Source of the DNA: Candidatus Hodarchaeota archaeon
GTDB lineage: Archaea; Asgardarchaeota; Heimdallarchaeia; Hodarchaeales; Hodarchaeaceae
DNA length: 26,843 nt
Assembly (NCBI GenBank): GCA_016839815.1
Contig: JAEOTM010000195.1
Location: 1 to 26,843, forward strand
Direction: 5' to 3'
Shown: one piece after another, positions 10,099 through 26,616 of the stretch
Layout: each line of letters starts with the position of its first letter
Numbering within the stretch: position 1 is the stretch's first letter
Position numbers and translations under genes: made by a program
The notes under the pieces: model-generated
The model's input: only the letters and a program-made list of their open reading frames with translations
What the model was told of the DNA's origin: nothing
Databases searched by the model: none

Positions 10099-10806
10099 CT
10101 AAATGAGTATAATTAACGGACTTAAGGAGAGAAGGAAGATTGCAGCGTGGTATGTACTTATGACTTTGAGCTCACGATAAGCGAGATCATGATGAAACTC
10201 ACGAATGGCAATTATTGAATCTGAGATAACAAATAATAAAGCACCAAGTACCACAAAACCAAATTCCATTATTCCAGAGGTAGTCCACAGTAGCACTGCT
10301 GATGATAGCATACCTGAGATAAATATACAATAAATGATTACAGGGGTTCTGAATTTCCCTAATCCCTTATCAGAGGATTCTAAATAGCGTAGAAAGAGGA
10401 CTAGATAAATTATTAATCCAATAATAACGATTCCAGTCAATAATAAGGAATCTGAAGATATTCCAAGTTCAATAGCCTGACCCATTAACGAAATCATCAG
10501 GATTATTTGTGCAACTAAAAATAGAGGAAGTCCTGGGATTAGTCCTTTCTCCATACCAGCATCTCCTAACATGCAAAAAAATAACCCTATTGTCAAAATC
10601 AATGATAAATAGATCGACTCATGCCCAGTGTAGAGAACAAACAATGTAGCCATTCCAGCTGGAACCAGTTTAATATAAGTACTGAATGGAGCTAATTTTC
10701 TTAAGAACTCAACCTTAAGGTCAATCTCATCTGACTTAGTACTTTTGACAAGTATATAGAGAACTGAAAAAAACCAGAAACAAACTGTGTAGATTATTTC
10801 GATCAT
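10099..10806 (-). CDS. YhhN / TMEM86 family (lysoplasmalogenase-like) membrane protein
   Basis: About 8 TM segments, with family motifs K.VP, GLFFCMLGD, GL..FL.A, PVIIY, GALLFVISDSIIA and STY. The likely start is ATG 10806 (MIEIIY) rather than 10911. Confidence 0.85.
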   Translation of the reverse strand: MIEIIYTVCFWFFSVLYILVKSTKSDEIDLKVEFLRKLAPFSTYIKLVPAGMATLFVLYTGHESIYLSLILTIGLFFCMLGDAGMEKGLIPGLPLFLVAQIILMISLMGQAIELGISSDSLLLTGIVIIGLIIYLVLFLRYLESSDKGLGKFRTPVIIYCIFISGMLSSAVLLWTTSGIMEFGFVVLGALLFVISDSIIAIREFHHDLAYRELKVISTYHAAIFLLSLSPLIILI

Positions 10807-10927
10807 TTTTACCACTTTTTCCAAAGAGAACCTAGGAAAAATTGTCTGTATATTCTCCTTAAAAGCATTTGGCTTGAAAGAGAAAATCAAAGGGGGGAAA
10901 TTCTGAATCAATCGAAGAAATCATTAA

Positions 10928-13423: not shown

Positions 13424-14029
13424 ATGATTTCTGGAATAATTCTTGCCGCAGGGGAATCAAAACGCTTCACTACACAAAATAAACTCCTTTATGAACTTAC
13501 TCCTGGAATAAGTCTAATAGAATCTATCATTCATGCTTTTTTGCAATCTCAAGTACATGAGTTAATCATCGTTACAGGTTTTGATTCTACCAGAATAGAA
13601 GAGGTAATTCGAAAAGCTTCAATCGATTTCAAAAATCGTGTTAGAATAACATTTAATGAAAAATATAAAACTGGAGGAATGTCTTCCTCTGTAATTACAG
13701 GACTAAAGGAGGTAGATAAAGCTGATGCTGTTCTAATTACTCCAGCGGATATTCCGCTTATACCTCCAGAGACTATCGACTTAATGATTTCATATTTCTT
13801 GAAAAAACAACCAGAAATTATAATTCCGACTTTTAAAAATCGAAAAGGTCATCCTATCATGTTTAAATCTACGTTATTTACTCAAATCTTGATGATTTCC
13901 GAAAAACAGCGAGGACTTAAAGAAATAACAAACAAATACCAAAAAGAAATTGTATTTCTTCCCGTACAAAACTCTGGTATACTTAAGGACCTAGATACGA
14001 TAGATGATCTGAAAAAATTTTCTCCGTAG
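13424..14029 (+). CDS. mocA: Molybdenum cofactor cytidylyltransferase (MocA-like NTP transferase)
   Basis: IILAAGESKRF, GMSSS, PADIP, GHP and DLDTIDD. It lies next to XDH-family genes, which typically use MCD. Confidence 0.85.
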   Translation: MISGIILAAGESKRFTTQNKLLYELTPGISLIESIIHAFLQSQVHELIIVTGFDSTRIEEVIRKASIDFKNRVRITFNEKYKTGGMSSSVITGLKEVDKADAVLITPADIPLIPPETIDLMISYFLKKQPEIIIPTFKNRKGHPIMFKSTLFTQILMISEKQRGLKEITNKYQKEIVFLPVQNSGILKDLDTIDDLKKFSP

Positions 14030-14040
14030 TTTCTTATTGG

Positions 14041-14055
14041 GAAAAACTCTTTATA
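14041..14055 (+). promoter_or_regulatory. Archaeal BRE-TATA-like promoter for the moaD-xdh operon
   Basis: GAAAAACTC-TTTATA ends 28 nt upstream of ATG 14084, consistent with a leaderless transcript. Confidence 0.45.
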
Positions 14056-14083
14056 TTTTTTATTTATCTTCTCTGTTTAGTTC

Positions 14084-14341
14084 ATGGTAAGATCGAATAT
14101 GAATTCTGCTACATTAGAGCTAGTTGGATCAGTCCGAAATCCTTTTCCTAGCAAGAAACGTAAAAAAACAATTGAATTTTCGAAAAAAACATCTATCAAG
14201 ACAATCTTACTTAAAGTAGGGTTTCTCGAAACAGAGCTAGAATTCCTTATTCCAATCGTGAACGGAACACGAACCTCACATGACTATCTACTACAAGATA
14301 ACGATCACATCTGGATTTCTCTCCCTATTGGCGGAGGTTAA
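14084..14341 (+). CDS. MoaD/ThiS/SAMP ubiquitin-like sulfur carrier
   Basis: 85 aa with IVNG...LQDNDHI..SLPIGGG* and a C-terminal di-glycine. Confidence 0.85.
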   Translation: MVRSNMNSATLELVGSVRNPFPSKKRKKTIEFSKKTSIKTILLKVGFLETELEFLIPIVNGTRTSHDYLLQDNDHIWISLPIGGG

Positions 14342-14347
14342 ACAAAT

Positions 14348-15184
14348 ATGAAAAACGTAACAGAATTTATGTACCCTTCAAACGTCTCAGAGGCTTTATC
14401 GCTTTATACAGAACAAGAAAATTGTGCTTATATCGCTGGTGGAACCCACATATCGGCAGAAAATAGGAATAATACTATTAGACTTGTAGATATTACACGA
14501 ATAGGTTTAAATGAAATTATAGATGGGGATGAGAGAATTCAAGTAGGTGCTACAGCAACAATAACAGATATGTATTGTTCACCAGTCGTGAAAAAAGTAG
14601 GAAATGGTGTGCTGAAGAAAGCATGTCAATTAATAGCCGACACACCACTAAGAAATGCCATTACCCTAGGAGGGAATATCGCTCGTTTGTATACTTGGGC
14701 AGGATTACCCGTAGTGTTGCTTACATTAGATGCCGAAGTTGAAATTATGAATCCACAGGGAGAGACCACAATGGTACCAGCTACTGATCACTTTACCAAT
14801 GGTGGTGTAAAAGGTGGAGATCTAATCCTCAAGGTCCATTTTCCACAAAAAAAATCTTGGATTCACTTCTATGAAAAATTTTGCCTTACAACAGTAGATT
14901 ACTCATGGTTAACCATGGCCTTTGCTGCAGAAGTTAAAGATGGAAAAATCAGTGATGCTAGACTTGCAGTCTCCCGTATTACTAAAGTTAAACGAGTGAC
15001 AGAAGTGGAAAACGCAATCATAGGGCAAAAAGTGGCTAATCTTGAATTTAACAATCTTATATCAGTTTTAAAATCATCTGTTAATATTGTAAAGGATTAT
15101 CGTGTAAGTAAAGAATATCGCAAACAACTTTTGGGAGTTTTATTCAAACGAATGCTCCAACAACTACAGGAGGAATCAAAATGA
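14348..15184 (+). CDS. Molybdenum hydroxylase FAD-binding subunit (XdhB/CoxM-like)
   Basis: YIAGGT, IQVGATAT, LRNAITLGGNIA and DYRVSKEYRK. ATGA overlap with the next gene. Confidence 0.88.
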   Translation: MKNVTEFMYPSNVSEALSLYTEQENCAYIAGGTHISAENRNNTIRLVDITRIGLNEIIDGDERIQVGATATITDMYCSPVVKKVGNGVLKKACQLIADTPLRNAITLGGNIARLYTWAGLPVVLLTLDAEVEIMNPQGETTMVPATDHFTNGGVKGGDLILKVHFPQKKSWIHFYEKFCLTTVDYSWLTMAFAAEVKDGKISDARLAVSRITKVKRVTEVENAIIGQKVANLEFNNLISVLKSSVNIVKDYRVSKEYRKQLLGVLFKRMLQQLQEESK

Positions 15185-15654
15185 GCCAGATTTTGCATGT
15201 AACCATTAATGGACTGCAGAAAAAACTTTCAATTGAACCTGATGAACTTTTGCTTGACGTACTTAGACGTGATGGATATAAAGGAGTAAAAAGGGGATGC
15301 AAAGAGGGAGCTTGTGGAACTTGTACAATTCTGCTTAATGGAAAAGCTGTAAAATCCTGCATAATGTTAGCTGCCCAAGCTGAAGGTGGAGAAATTATTA
15401 CCATTGAGGGAATAGGAACAAGGGAAAAACCCCATCCGATTCAACAAGCATTTGTGGATGAAGGAGTAGTCCAGTGTGGGTATTGTATTCCAGGAATGAT
15501 ACTAGCTGCTAAAAATTTACTTGATAACAATCCTAATCCTACCGAGGGCGAAATCAAATTTGCATTAGATGGAAATTTATGCCGTTGTACAGGGTACAGT
15601 GGTCAAATTAAGGCAGTATTAGCTGCTGCCGAAGCTATACGAGGTGAAAAATAA
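15181..15654 (+). CDS. Molybdenum hydroxylase 2x[2Fe-2S] subunit (CoxS-like)
   Basis: GCKEGACGTCT..SC, QCGYCIPG and NLCRCTGY. Confidence 0.95.
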   Translation: MSQILHVTINGLQKKLSIEPDELLLDVLRRDGYKGVKRGCKEGACGTCTILLNGKAVKSCIMLAAQAEGGEIITIEGIGTREKPHPIQQAFVDEGVVQCGYCIPGMILAAKNLLDNNPNPTEGEIKFALDGNLCRCTGYSGQIKAVLAAAEAIRGEK

Positions 15655-17987
15655 TGACGAAATTTTACGAAGGACGAGTAGTTACAAAAAGTGTTCCAAA
15701 AAAAGATGCACTTAGTTTAGCAATGGGGAAACCCATGTATACAGATGATATTGACTATAAAGACCTCGTTCATGTGAAAATGCTACGTAGCCCACATGCA
15801 CACGCAATAATCGAGAAAATTGATACAAGTAAGGCTGAAAAGTTACCTGGTGTAGTGGGAATATTAACCTACAAAAATTCCTCACAAGTTCTTCATACAA
15901 GTGCAGGTCAGGGTTTTCCTGAACCTTCTCCCTATGATACACGACTATTTAACAAGAAAGTTAAATTTGTTGGGGAAAGAGTTGCAGCTGTTGCTGCAGA
16001 AACAATTAAAATTGCAGAAGCAGCTTTAGACTTAATTAAAGTGGAATATACTGTTCTTGAACCAGTTTTTGACCATGATAAGGCTTTGGGGAATAAAGTC
16101 GTTATCCATGACGAGGATGATTCTAAGTACATTATTCCAGTATTTTTTGATCCCAAGAAGAACCACGCTTCCCATGTGGATGCAGAAACAGGTGATTTAG
16201 AAAAAGGATTTGCAGAAGCAGACCATATTGTGGAAAAAACTGTTAGAAACCATTATGGACAACATTGTCCATTAGAACCGCATATCAGCATTGCCTATAT
16301 TGATAACTACGATCGTTTAGTCGTTCGAACAGCCACCCAAGTTCCTTTTCACTGCCGAAGAATCTTAGCTCAAATCTTGGAGATCCCACTCTCACAAATT
16401 AGAGTTATTAAACCTAGAATCGGTGGAGGATTTGGTACAAAGCAGGAGATTATCACAGAACCTATCGTTGCATCTTTTGCCTGGAAATTGAAGCGTCCTG
16501 TTAAGTTTGAGTTTACTAGAAAAGAGGAATTTATCTCAGCCCGTACACGTCATCCTATGACAACTTGGTTTAAAGCGGGAGTGAAGAAAGATGGTACCAT
16601 AACTGCCATGGATATGAGAGTAACGAGCAACACTGGTGCTTATGGCTCACATGCATTAACCGTGTTGAGTAATACAGGAAGTAAAACATTGCCTCTCTAT
16701 CACTGTCAAAATATCAGATTTATTGGAGATACCGTATATACTAATCTTCCTGTCGCTGGAGCTTATAGGGGGTACGGTGGTACACAAGCCTCACTAGCTA
16801 TGGAAATTGTTATGGATGATTTGGCTGGAGAGATTGGTATGGATCCAGCTAAGTTTCGATTAATGAATCATATAAAAGCAGGTGAAACCTCTCCTATATT
16901 TAAAGCACTAGGTGAGGGTACAGAAGGTGTTGAGCAAACAGTAGATTCAGTAGGTTTAACAGAATGCATTAATCAAGGTGCAGATGCTATCAATTGGTGG
17001 AATCGGGAAGAAATCAAAAAACAAAATAGTACAGATACAGTTAAGCGGGGTTTTGGTCTTGTGTGTGTGATGCAAGGATCTTCGATACCAGATATTGATA
17101 TGGCTGCAGGATATTGTAAGATGAATGAGGACGGAACCTTCAATCTGCTAGTAGGTGCAACAGATATTGGAACAGGGTCTGATACCATTCTTGCTCAAAT
17201 CTTTGCAGAGGGATTGGGTATTGAGGAATCGGATGTAATCGTCCTTAGTTCCGATACAGATACTACACCCTTCGATACTGGTGCCTATGCTTCGTCTACT
17301 ACCTATTTGACGGGTCAGGCATGTATAAATTTAACAATGAAAGTTAAAGAGCAACTATTTACCTATACTGCCACTGTGCTAAATGTACCCAAGGATGAAT
17401 TGAAAATTGAAGACAAAGCAGTTGTCCACAAGAAGTCAGGAAAACAAATGACATTTGCAGAGATTGGAACGAAGTCGTATTACTCTGAAAATCAAACACA
17501 GATAGGTGCTGTGGCCTCAGAGTTATCAAAAAAATCTCCTCCTCCATTCATTGCGCATTATGCCGAAGTAGATGTGGATATCGAAACAGGTCGGGTAAGT
17601 GTACTAAAATACGTAGCGGCAGTTGATTGTGGGACACCAATCAATCCAAAATTAGTAGTAGGCCAAGTCGAAGGAGCATTAGTAAATGGATTATGTTATG
17701 CTTTATCAGAACGGTATATTTTCAATGATAAAGGGAAAATGATGAACCCTTCATTCGGTAATTACAAAATCATGACAACCATTGATCTACCTGAAATAGA
17801 AACGATTATAGTTCCTACCTACGAACCAAGTGGTCCTTGGGGAGCAAAATCAGTAGCTGAAGTAAATATTTCAGGCCCAATGCCAGTGTTGAGCAATGCT
17901 ATATTTGATGCTATAGGAATACGGATGACAGAACCTCCATATACTCCCGATCGGGTACTTAAGGCCATTCAGGATCATAACAAGTGA
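15654..17987 (+). CDS. Molybdenum hydroxylase molybdopterin-binding subunit (xanthine/aldehyde oxidoreductase family, XdhD-like)
   Basis: LRSPHAHA, QHCPLEPH, IGGGFGTK, AYRGYGGTQ, DIGTGSDT, AYASSTT, GQVEG and GAKSVAE (catalytic Glu). It lacks the CO-dehydrogenase AYxCSFR loop. TAATG overlap with the previous gene. Confidence 0.93.
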   Translation: MTKFYEGRVVTKSVPKKDALSLAMGKPMYTDDIDYKDLVHVKMLRSPHAHAIIEKIDTSKAEKLPGVVGILTYKNSSQVLHTSAGQGFPEPSPYDTRLFNKKVKFVGERVAAVAAETIKIAEAALDLIKVEYTVLEPVFDHDKALGNKVVIHDEDDSKYIIPVFFDPKKNHASHVDAETGDLEKGFAEADHIVEKTVRNHYGQHCPLEPHISIAYIDNYDRLVVRTATQVPFHCRRILAQILEIPLSQIRVIKPRIGGGFGTKQEIITEPIVASFAWKLKRPVKFEFTRKEEFISARTRHPMTTWFKAGVKKDGTITAMDMRVTSNTGAYGSHALTVLSNTGSKTLPLYHCQNIRFIGDTVYTNLPVAGAYRGYGGTQASLAMEIVMDDLAGEIGMDPAKFRLMNHIKAGETSPIFKALGEGTEGVEQTVDSVGLTECINQGADAINWWNREEIKKQNSTDTVKRGFGLVCVMQGSSIPDIDMAAGYCKMNEDGTFNLLVGATDIGTGSDTILAQIFAEGLGIEESDVIVLSSDTDTTPFDTGAYASSTTYLTGQACINLTMKVKEQLFTYTATVLNVPKDELKIEDKAVVHKKSGKQMTFAEIGTKSYYSENQTQIGAVASELSKKSPPPFIAHYAEVDVDIETGRVSVLKYVAAVDCGTPINPKLVVGQVEGALVNGLCYALSERYIFNDKGKMMNPSFGNYKIMTTIDLPEIETIIVPTYEPSGPWGAKSVAEVNISGPMPVLSNAIFDAIGIRMTEPPYTPDRVLKAIQDHNK

Positions 17988-19914: not shown

Positions 19915-21693
19915 TTATTTCTGTAATATTGCCTTCCCTGTTTGTACATTCCAAAGAGTGGTGTACAAATTATTAGATTTAACCAATTCCTCATGCGTTC
20001 CTTCTTCAATAATCTCTCCGTTTTCTATTACATAGATACGATCTGCATTACGTACAGTGCTAAGTCTATGTGCAATCAATATCGTTGTTCTATCGAGAAT
20101 AATCTTCTCTAAAGACCTCTGAATTGCTGCTTCTGTTTCATTATCCACAGACGATGTTGCTTCATCCAGTACAAGTATTGGGGGGTCTTTAAGCACAGCA
20201 CGGGCTATTGAAATTCTTTGTCTTTGTCCTCCGCTTAATTTCTGACCTCTTTCACCCACCAGTGTATCATATCCATTCGGAAGGTCAGTGATAAATTCGT
20301 GAACTTCCGCAATTTTAGCTGCTTCTATTATTTTTTCCATAGAGGCATCTTGTCTTCCATAGATTATATTTTCCTTTACAGTTCCATCTATGAGGAACGT
20401 ATCCTGTGAAACAAGGCCAATTCCTTGACGTAAATCCTGAAGTTTTAAATCTTGAAGATTGATATTATCAAGAGAAATTTCTCCATTGATCGGATCATAT
20501 AATCGAAGGAGTAATTTGACAATTGTGGTTTTTCCTGACCCCGTAGATCCTACAAATGCCACTGTTTGACCAGGATGAATATTTACACTTAAATTGGAAA
20601 AAACTACTTCTCTACCTTTATAGGAAAAATCTACATTCTTAAAGCACAATTTCCCCTGAATTTTATTTAACGGAAGCTCAACTATCCCAGATTGGATCTT
20701 ACTTTGAGTATCAAAAAGACTCATAATTCTCGATACTGATGCCATGGCACGTTGATACTGATCGAAAGTCTCACCCATTCGTGTTAAAGGCCATAAAAGC
20801 CTTTGAGTTAAAAATATCATTGCACTATAAGCCGCTACTTCTAGATTACCATCAATAGTTTGGAATCCCCCAAAAATAAGCATGGCGGTAAATCCTAATA
20901 CGATAATCATTCGAATCAGAGGAGAAAATGCAGAACTAAATTTAATTGCATCGCGATTACTCTGTCGGTATGCGTTTGAGGAGGCAGAGATTCGTTGGGC
21001 TTCGAATGACTCAGTTGTGTAACTTTTGATGGTAGCAATACCAGTTAGGTTATTCGATAATTGGCCGTTCAATATTCCCACCTTCTCACGAACCGCACGA
21101 TATTTGGGCTCAAGACGAGTTTGAAAAAGAACAGCAAAGGTTAAAATAAATGGCATGGGAACCATTGCCATCCATGCAATCTGTGGAGAGAGTACAAAAA
21201 ATGCGAGGGAAATAGTGATTGCAGTAACTGTAACCTGAATTAGATCATTAGCACTGACATCAAGAAATCGTTCTAATTGATTAATATCGTCGTTCAAGAT
21301 TGACATTAATCCACCAGTCTGACGATCCTCAAAATATTCGAGTTCTAAACTCTGAAGATGATTATAAGCATCCATTCTTAATTCATGTTCAACTGTCTGA
21401 GCTAAATTCCTCCAATAAATCTTGTACACATATTCAAACAATGATTCGAACCCCCAGATGACAAATGTTATTAATCCGAGAACCACAAATTGTGTTGAAG
21501 GATCTGTAATGCCAAAAGATGAAAATATCGAATTTTCTCGTCGTACTGCTATATCTACCGCAGCTGAAATTAGAAAAGGTGGTGCCAAATCGAATAATTT
21601 GTTCACTATCGAGAAGAATGTGGCTAGAATGATAGTTGTACGATGTGGTCGTGTATATTGAAGTAACTGAATAAATGGACGATCGGGATTCAT
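19915..21693 (-). CDS. ABC exporter half-transporter, TMD plus NBD (MsbA/Sav1866 type), canonical NBD
   Basis: Six TM segments, Walker A GSTGSGKTT, LSGGQRQR, Walker B LVLDEATS and IAHRLST. Confidence 0.95.
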   Translation of the reverse strand: MNPDRPFIQLLQYTRPHRTTIILATFFSIVNKLFDLAPPFLISAAVDIAVRRENSIFSSFGITDPSTQFVVLGLITFVIWGFESLFEYVYKIYWRNLAQTVEHELRMDAYNHLQSLELEYFEDRQTGGLMSILNDDINQLERFLDVSANDLIQVTVTAITISLAFFVLSPQIAWMAMVPMPFILTFAVLFQTRLEPKYRAVREKVGILNGQLSNNLTGIATIKSYTTESFEAQRISASSNAYRQSNRDAIKFSSAFSPLIRMIIVLGFTAMLIFGGFQTIDGNLEVAAYSAMIFLTQRLLWPLTRMGETFDQYQRAMASVSRIMSLFDTQSKIQSGIVELPLNKIQGKLCFKNVDFSYKGREVVFSNLSVNIHPGQTVAFVGSTGSGKTTIVKLLLRLYDPINGEISLDNINLQDLKLQDLRQGIGLVSQDTFLIDGTVKENIIYGRQDASMEKIIEAAKIAEVHEFITDLPNGYDTLVGERGQKLSGGQRQRISIARAVLKDPPILVLDEATSSVDNETEAAIQRSLEKIILDRTTILIAHRLSTVRNADRIYVIENGEIIEEGTHEELVKSNNLYTTLWNVQTGKAILQK

Positions 21694-21797: not shown

Positions 21798-23066
21798 ATG
21801 AAAATCGGTATCATCGGTGCTGGAATAGGAGGATGTTCTGCTGCTTACTATCTCCGCCAAAAACTTCCAGACTCAGAAATTTATATCTATGATAAGCTAG
21901 GTAGAATTGGTGGAAGATTATATCATCGTCAAATTGCTAATATTACCAATGAATTAGGGGCGACATTCTTTCATACAGTAAATAAACACCTTATGAAGTT
22001 TGTTGAAGACTTTGATATTCCTATAGATGAATATGTCTATCCGAGATTTGGTATATGGGATAGCAAAAGTATTATCTTTACATCAAGTAGAAATTCTCTC
22101 ATTACGAATCTAAAATTATTTCTACGCTATCGAATGACTGCGTTACGATTAAATGGATTGATCAAAGCAGCGAAGAAGCGTGTACTGGCACTATATCAGC
22201 AAGATCCAACTGTATATTCGAATTTAAGGGATCTCTTTACTACAGGTAACATTAACGAATGGATAGGCATTCCATTTGATGAGTATTTACGTTCGATGGG
22301 AATTTCTCAGAAATTCATTGATGAAATCATTGAACCGAGTACAAGGATGATTTACACTCAAAATGCAGGTATAGGAAGTTTTGCCGGATTAGCCACATTG
22401 ATTTCATCGGATGGGACTCCACTCTACAAAATGAAAAAGGGGAATGCTTCCTTAGCACAGCATTTAACGGAGGTTTCCAAGAGTAAAGTGAAATTAAATA
22501 CTGTAATCGATACTGTTGAAAAAAATAATGGTAGACTTCTTATTAAAGGGAAGGATCTAACTGAAGAATTTGATGCTATTATTCTTGCCGCTCCACTGGA
22601 ACAAGCAAACCTAATAATAAACTTGGATATTCCTAAAATCGAAATGAGAAAGTTTCAAACTACCCACTTCAAACTCATTATCGGCAAGGTAAATCCTGGT
22701 TATTTTGGTAAGAAGACCCTTGAAGAAATTCCGGAACTCTTGATGACCAAGAATGTTGAAACTCTTCCATTTAAGGTTCTAGAAAATTTAGGAAGATTAG
22801 ATGATGGAAATTTCTTATACAACCTTGTTTCAACAAATCCTATAACCGAAGAGTTGATTGATCAAATGTTTCAAGAAACTAAACTGATAGAAGATCATTC
22901 ATGGCAGTTTTCGTATCCTGTCTCCAGAGCTATCAAAGAGTATCAGCCAATCAAACTCCATTCAAATTTTTACTACATTAATGCAATTGAATCTACCGCA
23001 TCGACAATGGAAGCTTCCATATTGGGTGCAAAAACGGTTACAGATCTACTGGTAGCTGAGAATTAG
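21798..23066 (+). CDS. Prenylcysteine oxidase/lyase-like FAD oxidoreductase (PCYOX1 family)
   Basis: [63 protein letters not shown].SYP and LH.[18 protein letters not shown] follow the motif order of PCYOX1 as recalled from memory (no search run). Confidence 0.8.
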   Translation: [422 protein letters not shown]

Positions 23067-24847
23067 TTATGATTGTTATTCTCCACTTTTCCTTCCCATA
23101 AACGTCTCATTTCAGAGCTAGTTTCTAGAAGTGTCTCTAGGTTACCTGATGCTTCTAGGTTCCCTTTCTTTAGAATAATAATCTTATCTGCCTCTTGTAA
23201 GACTAAAGGCTTATGAGAGACAACTAAGAATGTGTTATCTTCCTTATTACAGAACATTCGTTCCCAAAAAACTTTTTCTGTTTCAACATCAAGAGCACTT
23301 GAAAGATCATCGAATACTTTTAACTCCGACTCCTTTACTAACATTCGAGCCGCCGCTAATCGTTGTTGCTGACCTCCAGAAAGTTTTTTTCCTTTTGGAC
23401 CTACTATTGTATTCAATCCATCCTCTACATCTTCCAAATCCTTCTGAAAAACTGCTAAATCAATAGCGGAGTTCATGCGATCAGGATTTTCAGGCATTCC
23501 CAGTAATAAGTTCTCCTTGATTGTGTCACTAAATAAATTGGGTACTTGAGGAGTATAGGCTGCACGAGGTGGTCTAAAGAATTCTGTAGTATCGGAAATT
23601 TCGTGGTTATTCCACTGAATTGAACCAGTACTAGGTAAGAGACCAAGAAACGCTTTTAATAAGGTTGATTTTCCAGATCCAACACGACCTGTTACAACTG
23701 TCAATGTTCCACGATTTAGTTCAAACGAAATATTTTGGATTCCTTTATCTGAATCAGGATATTGACAGCTAAGATTTCTTATTGTGATATTCTCAAGATA
23801 ATCTGTTGATTGTTTCTCCACAATAGTCCTTGGGGGATAGGCCGTTTTCAGATATAAAGGACTATGTTTCACTATATTCTTTTCAGGAATGTCTTTCATT
23901 GTACCTTTCATCAATTTCGTCATCCTACCATAAGAAACTGTCGTTCGATGGTAACGTGCAATTGATTCCCCCATGTAAGAAATAAAACCGGTTACCCAAT
24001 TCAATAGGTACTGAAAGAGGGCAAAATCACCAATAGTAAATTCCTTTGCGAGCATAGGTCTACTTATCATTAAAAACATAATTCCAGTTGCTAAAAATAC
24101 AATTAATGTTCTGGTTGCTCGTAGAAGTGAACCAAAAAATTCATCCTTGATTGCAGCCTGAGCTCTTTTATTATTGATCTGTTCAAAATGTTCTAACATA
24201 TTTTTTTCAGCAGTGTTTACCTTAACACTCTGAATAGAGCTAAAAATTTCTCTAATTGCACTGGTAACCTCACCAGTTGCTTTCCTTCTCTCACTTCGGT
24301 AATGAGCAACTCTTCTACGAAATGCATTCACCAGTACAATCACAACAACGAAGGGAAGAAAAATGAAGAAAGTAACCTCTGAATTAATGGTTAGCATTAT
24401 CAGAAAAGCAATAAATCCAAAAATGAAAAAGTTTAGCAAGTCAGCCATCGCAATAGGGAAATAAGATGCTTCTTCTGCATCCAGTCGAAAACGAGAAATA
24501 GCTTCTCCAGGTGAATATGGTGGGGAACTGGCACCATATTGAGTGTACAAACCATTCATCATATTTCGTCTAAAGAGTAATCTCATCGACATGAAGAAAA
24601 TATTCATTAAAAGAGCCCAGAAGACGTCAAAAATTATTTGAAAGATATTAACTACTAGTAGAATAAGAACTAACAACCAAATATCTACTTCAAACTCTAT
24701 CACTCCTTCTAAATGATTAAATATTTCCCTTACCGTTAATGCTCCTATTAAAGGAGTAATAAAGAAGGTAAAGGAGGTAAACCAAACGAAAAAGAATACT
24801 ACTGGTTTAAAACGAATACTTTCGATCATATATCGAGTCAAATTCAT
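23063..24847 (-). CDS. Heterodimeric ABC exporter subunit with degenerate Walker B
   Basis: TMD plus NBD, with GRVGSGKST, LSGGQQQR, Walker B VFDDLSS (E to D) and VSHK. Confidence 0.92.
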   Translation of the reverse strand: MNLTRYMIESIRFKPVVFFFVWFTSFTFFITPLIGALTVREIFNHLEGVIEFEVDIWLLVLILLVVNIFQIIFDVFWALLMNIFFMSMRLLFRRNMMNGLYTQYGASSPPYSPGEAISRFRLDAEEASYFPIAMADLLNFFIFGFIAFLIMLTINSEVTFFIFLPFVVVIVLVNAFRRRVAHYRSERRKATGEVTSAIREIFSSIQSVKVNTAEKNMLEHFEQINNKRAQAAIKDEFFGSLLRATRTLIVFLATGIMFLMISRPMLAKEFTIGDFALFQYLLNWVTGFISYMGESIARYHRTTVSYGRMTKLMKGTMKDIPEKNIVKHSPLYLKTAYPPRTIVEKQSTDYLENITIRNLSCQYPDSDKGIQNISFELNRGTLTVVTGRVGSGKSTLLKAFLGLLPSTGSIQWNNHEISDTTEFFRPPRAAYTPQVPNLFSDTIKENLLLGMPENPDRMNSAIDLAVFQKDLEDVEDGLNTIVGPKGKKLSGGQQQRLAAARMLVKESELKVFDDLSSALDVETEKVFWERMFCNKEDNTFLVVSHKPLVLQEADKIIILKKGNLEASGNLETLLETSSEMRRLWEGKVENNNHN

Positions 24848-26616
24848 ACCAAAACCTCCTCGATACCTGTTCGCAAGAGTTTGGAATACTTGGAATTAGG
24901 ATCCTTCAATAATTGAACTCTATCGCCATATTCACTAATTTTTCCATCTTCTAAAAGCATTATATCGTCAACATGATCCAGAGTTTGGAGACGGTGTGCA
25001 ATTATTATTGCCGTTCGATTTTCTAAGAGCTTATCTATTGCACTCTCGATTAATTTTTCTGTAGCTGGATCCAAACGCGATGAGGCTTCATCCAAAATCA
25101 CAAGTTTAGGATTCTTCATAAAGACACGAGTTAATGCCAGTAATTGTGCTTCTCCTGCAGAAAAACCTGTTTCTCCATTGAGTAATTTAGTATCTAACCC
25201 CTTCTTCAGCTTTTCAAACCAATCATGCAATTCTAGAGAATCTATTATACTCAAAATCTTTTCATCAGCAAGATTTTTGTTAAATAATGTTATATTATCT
25301 CGAACAGACGCTTGAAAGATTTCTACTTGCTGGGTTACATACGCAATACTATTTCGTAATTCTGATAATGGATAATCTTTAATATTGGTGTCATTGAAAT
25401 AAATCCCACCGCTGGTAGGATCGTATAAGCGAAATAGAAGACGAGAAATAGTTGTTTTTCCACTTCCTGTCCTACCAATCAATCCAAGCCTCCTACCTGG
25501 TTGAATTTGAAAAGAGATATCCTCGACTGTGGGGGTTCTTTCAGAGTAGGAAAATGTCAATGAGTCAAATTTTAACCTTAATTTCGTATCATCAATAAGA
25601 GTAGTCTCCCCACTATCTGTAATCTTGGTTTGAATTGCAAAAAGTTCTGCTACACGATCAATAGATGCATCAGCACGAGTGAGTTGTTGAGCTTCTCTAA
25701 CTAAACGAATCATTGGGTCAATAAGAGCGGCTACATATTGATTTATCAAAAATACCGTTCCTATAGAAATAACATCTGCCTGATATAAAGGGATGCCAGT
25801 TACAAACACCATAGTCGTACCTAAAGCAACAATTCCCATTATCGAAATGTGAATCATCCGGCTAACTAGCATGGCTTTGAATGTGATATCATATTCGGAT
25901 TTTGAATATTCATGAAACCGTTTCATGATATAGGGTGTTGCTCCGTTTGCTATTGCGTCTTCTTTCCCTGTAATCGCTTCTTCTACATATCCCATTAGAT
26001 CAGCACTTGATTGTCTGACTTTCTTCCAAAATGGAGAAGCATAGTTCCATATCTTGTATAGAACAAGTAATGTTGAAACACAAAACACAGTAAACGCTAA
26101 TCCGATTCTCCAGTCCTCTAGAAATAGTACAAATAAGATACCAATTATTAAGAGGAGATTCGTGACAATCAGCATAGAAAATTGCGAGAAAAAATTGGAC
26201 AGAGTGGTTACATCTCCATCAATCCGTTCTATCATCTTACCAGGTGTATGCTGGTTATGGAATGTCATATCAAGATCCACACAATGGGCTGCTAAATCCA
26301 TCCGTAACTGGTTAGTGGATCCCCATGCCAGTAGTTGAGTTAAATACACTGCTGCAATAAAAAATACCTGTTGTAAAGCAGCTAGTCCAATATACAGTAG
26401 TGCTGCTTCCAATAAACGCCTTTGAGCAGCAACTGTTGTTAATCCTCCTGCATCCACAAAATCAAAGGTATCTAAATAATAACGTATTATTTGAGGGTTG
26501 ATTAATGCAAAACCAATATCCAACAGAACAAGGATGAATAATACGAAAAAATATACCCTATATGGAGCTAAGTACTGCCGTAATAAGACGAAATACTTCC
26601 GGAAGGGTAATTTCAT
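24844..26616 (-). CDS. Heterodimeric ABC exporter subunit with degenerate signature motif
   Basis: TMD plus NBD, with GRTGSGKTT, signature FSAGEAQ, Walker B VILDEASS and IAHRL. ATGA overlap at 24844-24847 with its partner. Confidence 0.92.
   Translation of the reverse strand: MKLPFRKYFVLLRQYLAPYRVYFFVLFILVLLDIGFALINPQIIRYYLDTFDFVDAGGLTTVAAQRRLLEAALLYIGLAALQQVFFIAAVYLTQLLAWGSTNQLRMDLAAHCVDLDMTFHNQHTPGKMIERIDGDVTTLSNFFSQFSMLIVTNLLLIIGILFVLFLEDWRIGLAFTVFCVSTLLVLYKIWNYASPFWKKVRQSSADLMGYVEEAITGKEDAIANGATPYIMKRFHEYSKSEYDITFKAMLVSRMIHISIMGIVALGTTMVFVTGIPLYQADVISIGTVFLINQYVAALIDPMIRLVREAQQLTRADASIDRVAELFAIQTKITDSGETTLIDDTKLRLKFDSLTFSYSERTPTVEDISFQIQPGRRLGLIGRTGSGKTTISRLLFRLYDPTSGGIYFNDTNIKDYPLSELRNSIAYVTQQVEIFQASVRDNITLFNKNLADEKILSIIDSLELHDWFEKLKKGLDTKLLNGETGFSAGEAQLLALTRVFMKNPKLVILDEASSRLDPATEKLIESAIDKLLENRTAIIIAHRLQTLDHVDDIMLLEDGKISEYGDRVQLLKDPNSKYSKLLRTGIEEVLV

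Follow-up and report, generated by a model that had tools for sequence, protein, structure and literature searches.

A leaderless prenylcysteine oxidase-family flavoprotein in a Hodarchaeales archaeon, its relatives and its possible substrate

Introduction

Prenylcysteine oxidase (EC 1.8.3.5) uses O2 to convert S-farnesyl- or S-geranylgeranyl-cysteine to cysteine, an aldehyde and H2O2. PCYOX1, the mammalian enzyme, takes the C1 hydride from farnesyl- or geranylgeranyl-cysteine; it is inactivated by the Y221A substitution, remains active as Y433A, and has its tunnel blocked by V234W (PMC11530802). PCYOX1 numbers used here follow that study and equal the chain number of the PDB entry 9fxq plus 20. 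In PCYOX1-like, tunnel position 234 is Met instead of the Val of PCYOX1. Plant farnesylcysteine lyase (FCLY) belongs to the same Pfam family, and RefSeq lists a "prenylcysteine lyase family protein" in prokaryotes (e.g., WP_028986632 of Thermicanus aegyptius and WP_050048368 of Halanaeroarchaeum sulfurireducens), whose members are mostly leaderless, match PF07156 over its full length and have the same invariant residues as the protein described below.

PCYOX1-like proteins of Asgard archaea have also been published already. Kostlbacher et al. (PMC12962969; bioRxiv 10.1101/2024.07.03.601958) described in their main text an Asgard "isomorphic ESP" with PCYOX1 (Q5R748) as its best structural match. 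Going by that description, it is most likely the same Heimdallarchaeial family as ours. The main text gives it one clause and does not discuss sparse distribution, a bacterial clade or absent prenylation machinery, and the supplements of PMC12872458 and PMC10307638 do not mention the family.

Results and Discussion

The window analyzed here, a stretch of 26,843 nucleotides, is contig C180 of a Hodarchaeales metagenome-assembled genome (4.2 Mb, 89.5% complete). From the sequence alone, it had been read as encoding a 422-aa flavoprotein that begins directly at the Rossmann motif, lacks a signal peptide and resembles human PCYOX1 well beyond the FAD motif. The features concerned are as follows.

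21798..23066, + strand: PCYOX-family flavoprotein gene (P0001), leaderless, 422 aa (open reading frame, Pfam, structure comparison)
21798..22013, + strand: N-terminal FAD-binding Rossmann part, residues 1-72, GxGxxG at 7-12 (PF13450, residues 5-72)
22080..23054, + strand: Prenylcys_lyase substrate domain, residues 95-419 (PF07156 match, 9fxq alignment)

This description was borne out. The GxGxxG motif begins as early as residue 7, and since an in-frame TAG sits two codons before the ATG (the open frame spans 424 aa), a signal peptide is impossible and an overlooked one is ruled out. No transmembrane segments were found in the 422-aa protein. The Pfam search that had been proposed gave a full-length Prenylcys_lyase match of 175.4 bits (cut-off 27; model positions 2-351 of 363), and all four of the motifs quoted as PCYOX1-like were found (residues 7, 104, 168, and 387), with near-identical stretches in 9fxq_A, an ancestral mammalian PCYOX1. 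That chain aligned to residues 2-413 with an E-value of 1.8e-42, while the next best solved structure reached only 1.8e-7. The predicted model (pLDDT 92) has the same two-domain fold as mammalian PCYOX1 (PF13450 plus PF07156; TM 0.91, rmsd 2.5 Å to 9fxq), while amine oxidases reached a TM of at most 0.74. Its nearest Atlas clusters are plant, fungal, and mostly bacterial PF07156 proteins (TM 0.93-0.96; 0.95 for the mostly plant cluster). Scores against the NCBIfam protoporphyrinogen oxidase models were far under their cut-offs, and in a tree with amine-oxidase outgroups, another check proposed at the outset, the protein fell within the PCYOX family, apart from generic amine oxidases. An identity as a generic amine oxidase or protoporphyrinogen oxidase is ruled out by Pfam, NCBIfam, and the fold comparison. 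Sequence, profile, and fold agree on the family assignment, and the product of 21798-23066 is confirmed as a genuine, full-length, leaderless member.

The protein is ~25% identical to PCYOX1 over its whole length and ~50 residues shorter than the mature mammalian enzyme. An N-terminal extension occurs in 57 of 61 rows of eukaryotic members and is absent from the archaeal oxidase. Since the latter has neither a signal peptide nor a KDEL-type end, in contrast to mammalian PCYOX1, it should be cytoplasmic and not resident in the ER or secreted. In the alignment with 9fxq, Tyr186, Ala199, and Tyr373 of the oxidase correspond to Tyr221, Val234, and Tyr433 of PCYOX1. Tyr186 is conserved in 91-97% of the archaeal, bacterial, and eukaryotic alignment rows, and Asn62, Tyr133, Arg183, Gln188, Asn216, Phe303, Trp369, Glu398, and Glu405 are common to all three groups; the PCYOX1 chemistry has probably been kept, judging from these residues. 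Val or Ile occupies position 199 in 93% of the eukaryotic rows and 86% of the bacterial ones, whereas Ala or Ser predominates in the archaeal clade. Since Ala is smaller than Val, the tunnel should not be blocked, and specificity may change; the tail-binding tunnel, and with it the substrate, may therefore differ from those of PCYOX1.

The oxidase gene is single-copy in this genome and is flanked by ABC-exporter genes.

19915..21693, - strand: MsbA-like ABC exporter half-transporter, divergent from the oxidase (Pfam; context only)
23063..26616, - strand: pair of ABC exporter half-transporters, convergent with the oxidase (Pfam; context only)

For two of these flanking genes, several other genomes of the genus have orthologues of 78-90% identity, the ABC-oxidase-ABC order recurs in G018, and the GC3 of the oxidase gene (0.298) is normal for the genome (mean 0.276 ± 0.029). 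Eukaryotic contamination or mis-binning is ruled out by these three observations. No phage match was found. The stop codons of the oxidase and the nearer convergent ABC gene overlap. However, a functional unit of the oxidase with the three flanking exporters is unsupported, since the ABC genes occur oxidase-free in close relatives: the divergent gene has no adjoining oxidase in G002, G013, G019, and G020, nor does the nearer convergent gene in G002, G005, and G020, and tblastn revealed no remnant in either set. A unit with a HisKA_7TM kinase is likewise unsupported, and no conserved operon surrounds the oxidase across the Hodarchaeales loci. Two other neighbors, 4-11 kb away, are a YhhN (lysoplasmalogenase-family) membrane protein gene (10099-10911, - strand) and a xanthine-dehydrogenase-type molybdo-hydroxylase operon (13424-17987, + strand); linkage to the oxidase was found for neither.

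The sequence-only reading had offered three possibilities: prenylation of the cell's own proteins, scavenging of eukaryotic prenylcysteines, or an isoprenoid-thioether substrate of ancestral type. Scavenging or an endogenous isoprenoid thioether are the readings that we favor; the first fared worse. If the cell modified C-terminal cysteines (as a forerunner of CaaX or Rab prenylation), the enzyme would end the turnover of these proteins. The best candidate locus is on contig C17 (L002, L003; see also L072, L075).

G000:C17:21170-25032, all in one direction: Arf-like GTPase, ICMT/PEMT-like protein, zinc-less prenyltransferase-beta-like toroid, secreted C13 peptidase

The toroid adjoins the ICMT/PEMT-like gene and the GTPase, the genome encodes eight ICMT-family and eight Rce1-like proteins, and at 89.5% completeness some genes could have been missed. 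However, the toroid (291 aa) has no PDB match and lacks D-x-C...H, the zinc ligands of FTase/GGTase, and the Arf-like GTPase ends without a cysteine; the cluster is ruled out as a prenylation operon on these grounds. A PPTA alpha subunit was absent from the available genome and from all 121 Asgard genomes searched (none over cut-off). Cysteine occupied position -4 in 23 of 3263 closed ORFs (0.7%, under the 0.88% background), no ORF fitted a strict CaaX pattern or ended in CC or CXC, and a terminal cysteine was missing from every one of ~45 motif-picked GTPase-like proteins, which agrees with the lack of a C-terminal Cys in archaeal Rab-like proteins (PMC4915359). ICMT-family and Rce1-like matches also occurred in 5 and 11, respectively, of 14 ordinary control genomes. 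Prenylation of the CaaX or Rab type is thus unsupported here: the proposed search for its components yielded no alpha subunit, a zinc-less beta-like protein, no terminal-cysteine enrichment, no prenylatable GTPase, and ICMT- and Rce1-like genes of a kind common in controls. We consider it highly improbable as the source of the substrate; unlike mammals, the host has no source of protein-derived prenylcysteine that we could find. The genome weighs against archaeal CaaX prenylation rather than in its favor, and with Asgard PCYOX1-like proteins already in print, the present finding alone changes little. The C17 GTPase-toroid linkage is conserved in G018 and G020. Many Heimdallarchaeia also encode adjacent, very large proteins (770-1990 aa; L058-L070) with several prenyltransferase-type alpha-alpha toroids each.

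Neighborhoods of related oxidase genes were richer in membrane prenyltransferases. An oxidase gene adjoins, or lies within two genes of, a UbiA gene at five Bathyarchaeia loci, in G048, G083, and G034, and at L054. Among 24 Bathyarchaeia loci, UbiA is directly beside the oxidase in five, in two orientations; a third UbiA, unrelated to these, is found two genes away from P0078; and the three UbiA groups have no pairwise BLAST similarity. In Heimdallarchaeia, a distinct UbiA forms a module with a multi-transmembrane, roadblock-like protein (360-390 aa, ~6-7 TM segments, roadblock-like C-terminus) in seven genomes of three families.

UbiA plus roadblock-like module: L139:6418-10977, L140:4162-12161, L141:1-3713, L178:2877-6124
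Further UbiA plus roadblock-like module: L180:2569-4609, L181:6336-8364, L182:2-1998, L183:1079-3369

A PCYOX homologue is beside or within the module in three genomes (G034, G048, and G083), and a PAP2-family gene accompanies the module in two, including G083. One may speculate that UbiA, the roadblock-like protein, and the oxidase make, sense, and destroy a prenylated signal. As a clue to the substrate, these neighborhoods are suggestive only, since UbiA paralogues are abundant (11-16 family matches in each Hodarchaeales genome, a large membrane-prenyltransferase expansion) and the family was chosen after the loci had been seen. UbiA adjoins the oxidase at none of six Hodarchaeales loci, and the present genome has merely a distant relative of the module UbiA, on another contig. 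With no adjoining UbiA, and with ABC neighbors that exist without the oxidase in relatives, the locus itself offers no clue to what the enzyme acts on.

Twelve of 400 Asgard genomes had a protein over the PF07156 cut-off, all of them Heimdallarchaeia (12/83; 0/317 for the others). Carriers make up 6 of 22 genomes in the host genus, and 4 of 12 and 2 of 3 in two other families; these three families are among the four Heimdallarchaeial families with the heme-copper oxidase subunit I (COX1). Across Heimdallarchaeia, whose related genomes are not independent, COX1 was present in 8 of 12 carriers vs. 16 of 71 non-carriers, while no such link is seen within the host genus (3/6 vs. 6/16). In Bathyarchaeia, the family occurs in 7 of 301 genomes (~2%), and in the trees these copies fall inside a mix of Heimdallarchaeial rows and archaeal-type rows that are unplaced. 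Members from Chloroflexota, Bacillota, Acidobacteriota, Myxococcota, Actinomycetota, and haloarchaea form another prokaryotic clade; it is separate from the present oxidase, to which it is 24-34% identical, and keeps Val or Ile at 234. The family is therefore enriched in eukaryotes and not specific to eukaryotes plus Asgard archaea. The idea of a candidate eukaryotic-signature protein stands insofar as Asgard PCYOX1-like proteins have been proposed as ESPs in the main text of PMC12962969; in the strict sense it fails, since bacteria, haloarchaea, and Bathyarchaeia also carry the family, and the trees do not fix the direction of inheritance. Several copies have unusual settings. A bacterial-clade homologue on a haloarchaeal plasmid (L115:1735-7290) sits amid transposases and is three genes away from a polyprenyl synthetase, and the Heimdallarchaeial genome G085 has a split family gene on C293 (L050, L143:6921-8173) plus another copy on C117 (L053) that is intact but very divergent.

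Considering the sequence and the predicted model together, we assign a probability of roughly 0.6 to the protein being a PCYOX1-like FAD oxidase whose substrate is a long-chain isoprenoid thioether, cleaved with the use of O2. We infer FAD binding, O2 use, the substrate, and its source. The enzyme would be cytoplasmic, soluble or associated with the inner membrane, and would bind a long (C15-C20) isoprenoid thioether in its hydrophobic tunnel. The C1 hydride would pass from the substrate to FAD, the resulting thiocarbenium ion would be hydrolysed to a thiol (cysteine, if that is the head group) and a prenyl aldehyde, and the flavin would be re-oxidised by O2, yielding H2O2. The host would be a heterotrophic, O2-respiring cell, and the substrate would come not from host proteins carrying CaaX-type prenylation but, with about even odds, either from eukaryotic detritus as scavenged free prenylcysteine or from UbiA as a small S-prenylated metabolite. 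The genome encodes COX1 and aldehyde dehydrogenases and has motif matches for cytochrome bd and two catalases, a set that, as predicted, would be enough for O2 chemistry and for clearing H2O2 and aldehyde; Hodarchaeales have been described as coastal-sediment heterotrophs that respire aerobically (10.1101/2024.07.04.601786). Confinement of the Heimdallarchaeial gene to families that also have COX1 counts for O2 use. Counting against this reading are the 24-31% identity to eukaryotic PCYOX enzymes and the absence of any assayed prokaryotic family member from the literature searched.

The same fold and head-group site might instead serve a different hydrophobic substrate or acceptor, such as in C-N or C-O oxidation of a prenylated or long-chain metabolite, with electrons possibly passing to a quinone and not to O2. 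Carbon or oxygen, not sulfur, is the usual site of prenylation by UbiA enzymes; the family sits within the amine-oxidase fold; and position 234 differs in the archaeal clade. The gene also occurs without COX1 in G007 (99% complete), G003, and G019, which goes against an O2-dependent reading, and since Halanaeroarchaeum sulfurireducens, the bearer of WP_050048368, is an anaerobe, O2 may not be the acceptor. However, the residue set common to eukaryotic PCYOX enzymes, head-binding Tyr included, is nearly invariant across the three groups, and the fold is far nearer to PCYOX1 than to any amine oxidase, so we hold this alternative to be somewhat unlikely. Recycling of S-archaeol-cysteine released by lipoprotein turnover is very doubtful. 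The lipobox cysteine of archaeal lipoproteins does carry thioether-attached archaeol, through AliA-type lipidation, and AliA has been called widely conserved (PMC13631571). But the present genome shows no excess of lipobox-like N-termini (4, against 0-3 at control offsets), and Haloferax volcanii, in which AliA was described, had no PF07156 match in our control set. Moreover, the carbon beside the sulfur in S-archaeol would be a non-allylic glycerol CH2, and this two-chain lipid would be much larger than the substrates of PCYOX1. If the Heimdallarchaeial enzyme does cleave prenyl thioethers, cells that lack the eukaryotic prenylation cycle nonetheless possess its disposal step, which would imply either a novel S-prenyl metabolite of archaea or feeding on eukaryotic detritus. 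Since it is a small, soluble protein, this is directly testable.

The history of the gene was followed in quick protein trees made without bootstrap. On the RNA-polymerase tree of the host genus, the carriers require six state changes, and the deep splits of the oxidase tree are consistent with it, which fits an old gene that was repeatedly lost. G007 and G011 have oxidases that are more closely related than the hosts themselves, suggestive of some sideways movement. The archaeal clade stands apart from the bacterial clade in unrooted trees, and the latter sits amid eukaryotic rows, a few of which it takes in. In the best tree, the archaeal clade is monophyletic, with Heimdallarchaeial proteins as its deepest members; enforcing the archaeal rows together raised the likelihood (p-AU 0.60), and forcing the core eukaryotes together was borderline (p-AU 0.066). 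When seven distant outgroups of amine-oxidase type were added, the best tree was rooted on the archaeal stem, with roots on the bacterial or eukaryotic stem within 17 log-likelihood units, and none of the seven rootings compared was rejected (p-AU 0.21-0.74). Composition bias is strong, AT-rich archaeal and protist rows attract each other, and unplaced or compositionally extreme entries (P0183, P0168, P0157, P0181, P0171, P0328, P0149, P0317, and G054) were excluded from the tested trees.

Eukaryotes may have inherited the gene from their archaeal host, early eukaryotes may have passed it on by transfer (a route for which PMC12395588 argues in general terms), or its source may be bacterial. 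One scenario would have the enzyme ancient in O2-using Heimdallarchaeia, where it degraded a UbiA-made prenylated (thioether) small molecule, perhaps sensed by the linked multi-transmembrane roadblock-like protein. Eukaryotes would have inherited it from the archaeal host before protein prenylation arose and later turned it, now with a signal peptide, to disposing of prenylcysteine, and the bacterial clade would be a later derivative of eukaryotes. The archaeal root of the best tree, the monophyly of the archaeal clade, its deep Heimdallarchaeial members, and the UbiA module in G034, G048, and G083 fit this scenario; every other rooting fits about equally well, and we regard it as tentative and considerably more apt to be wrong than right. 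"Eukaryotic" rows were mostly labelled by N-terminal leaders and retention-type ends, the label being checked for P0064, P0065, P0066, and P0216 (by name) and P0131 (by its neighbors). P0149 and P0317 group with eukaryotic rows yet have an apparent bacterial lipoprotein signal, possibly reflecting a separate transfer.
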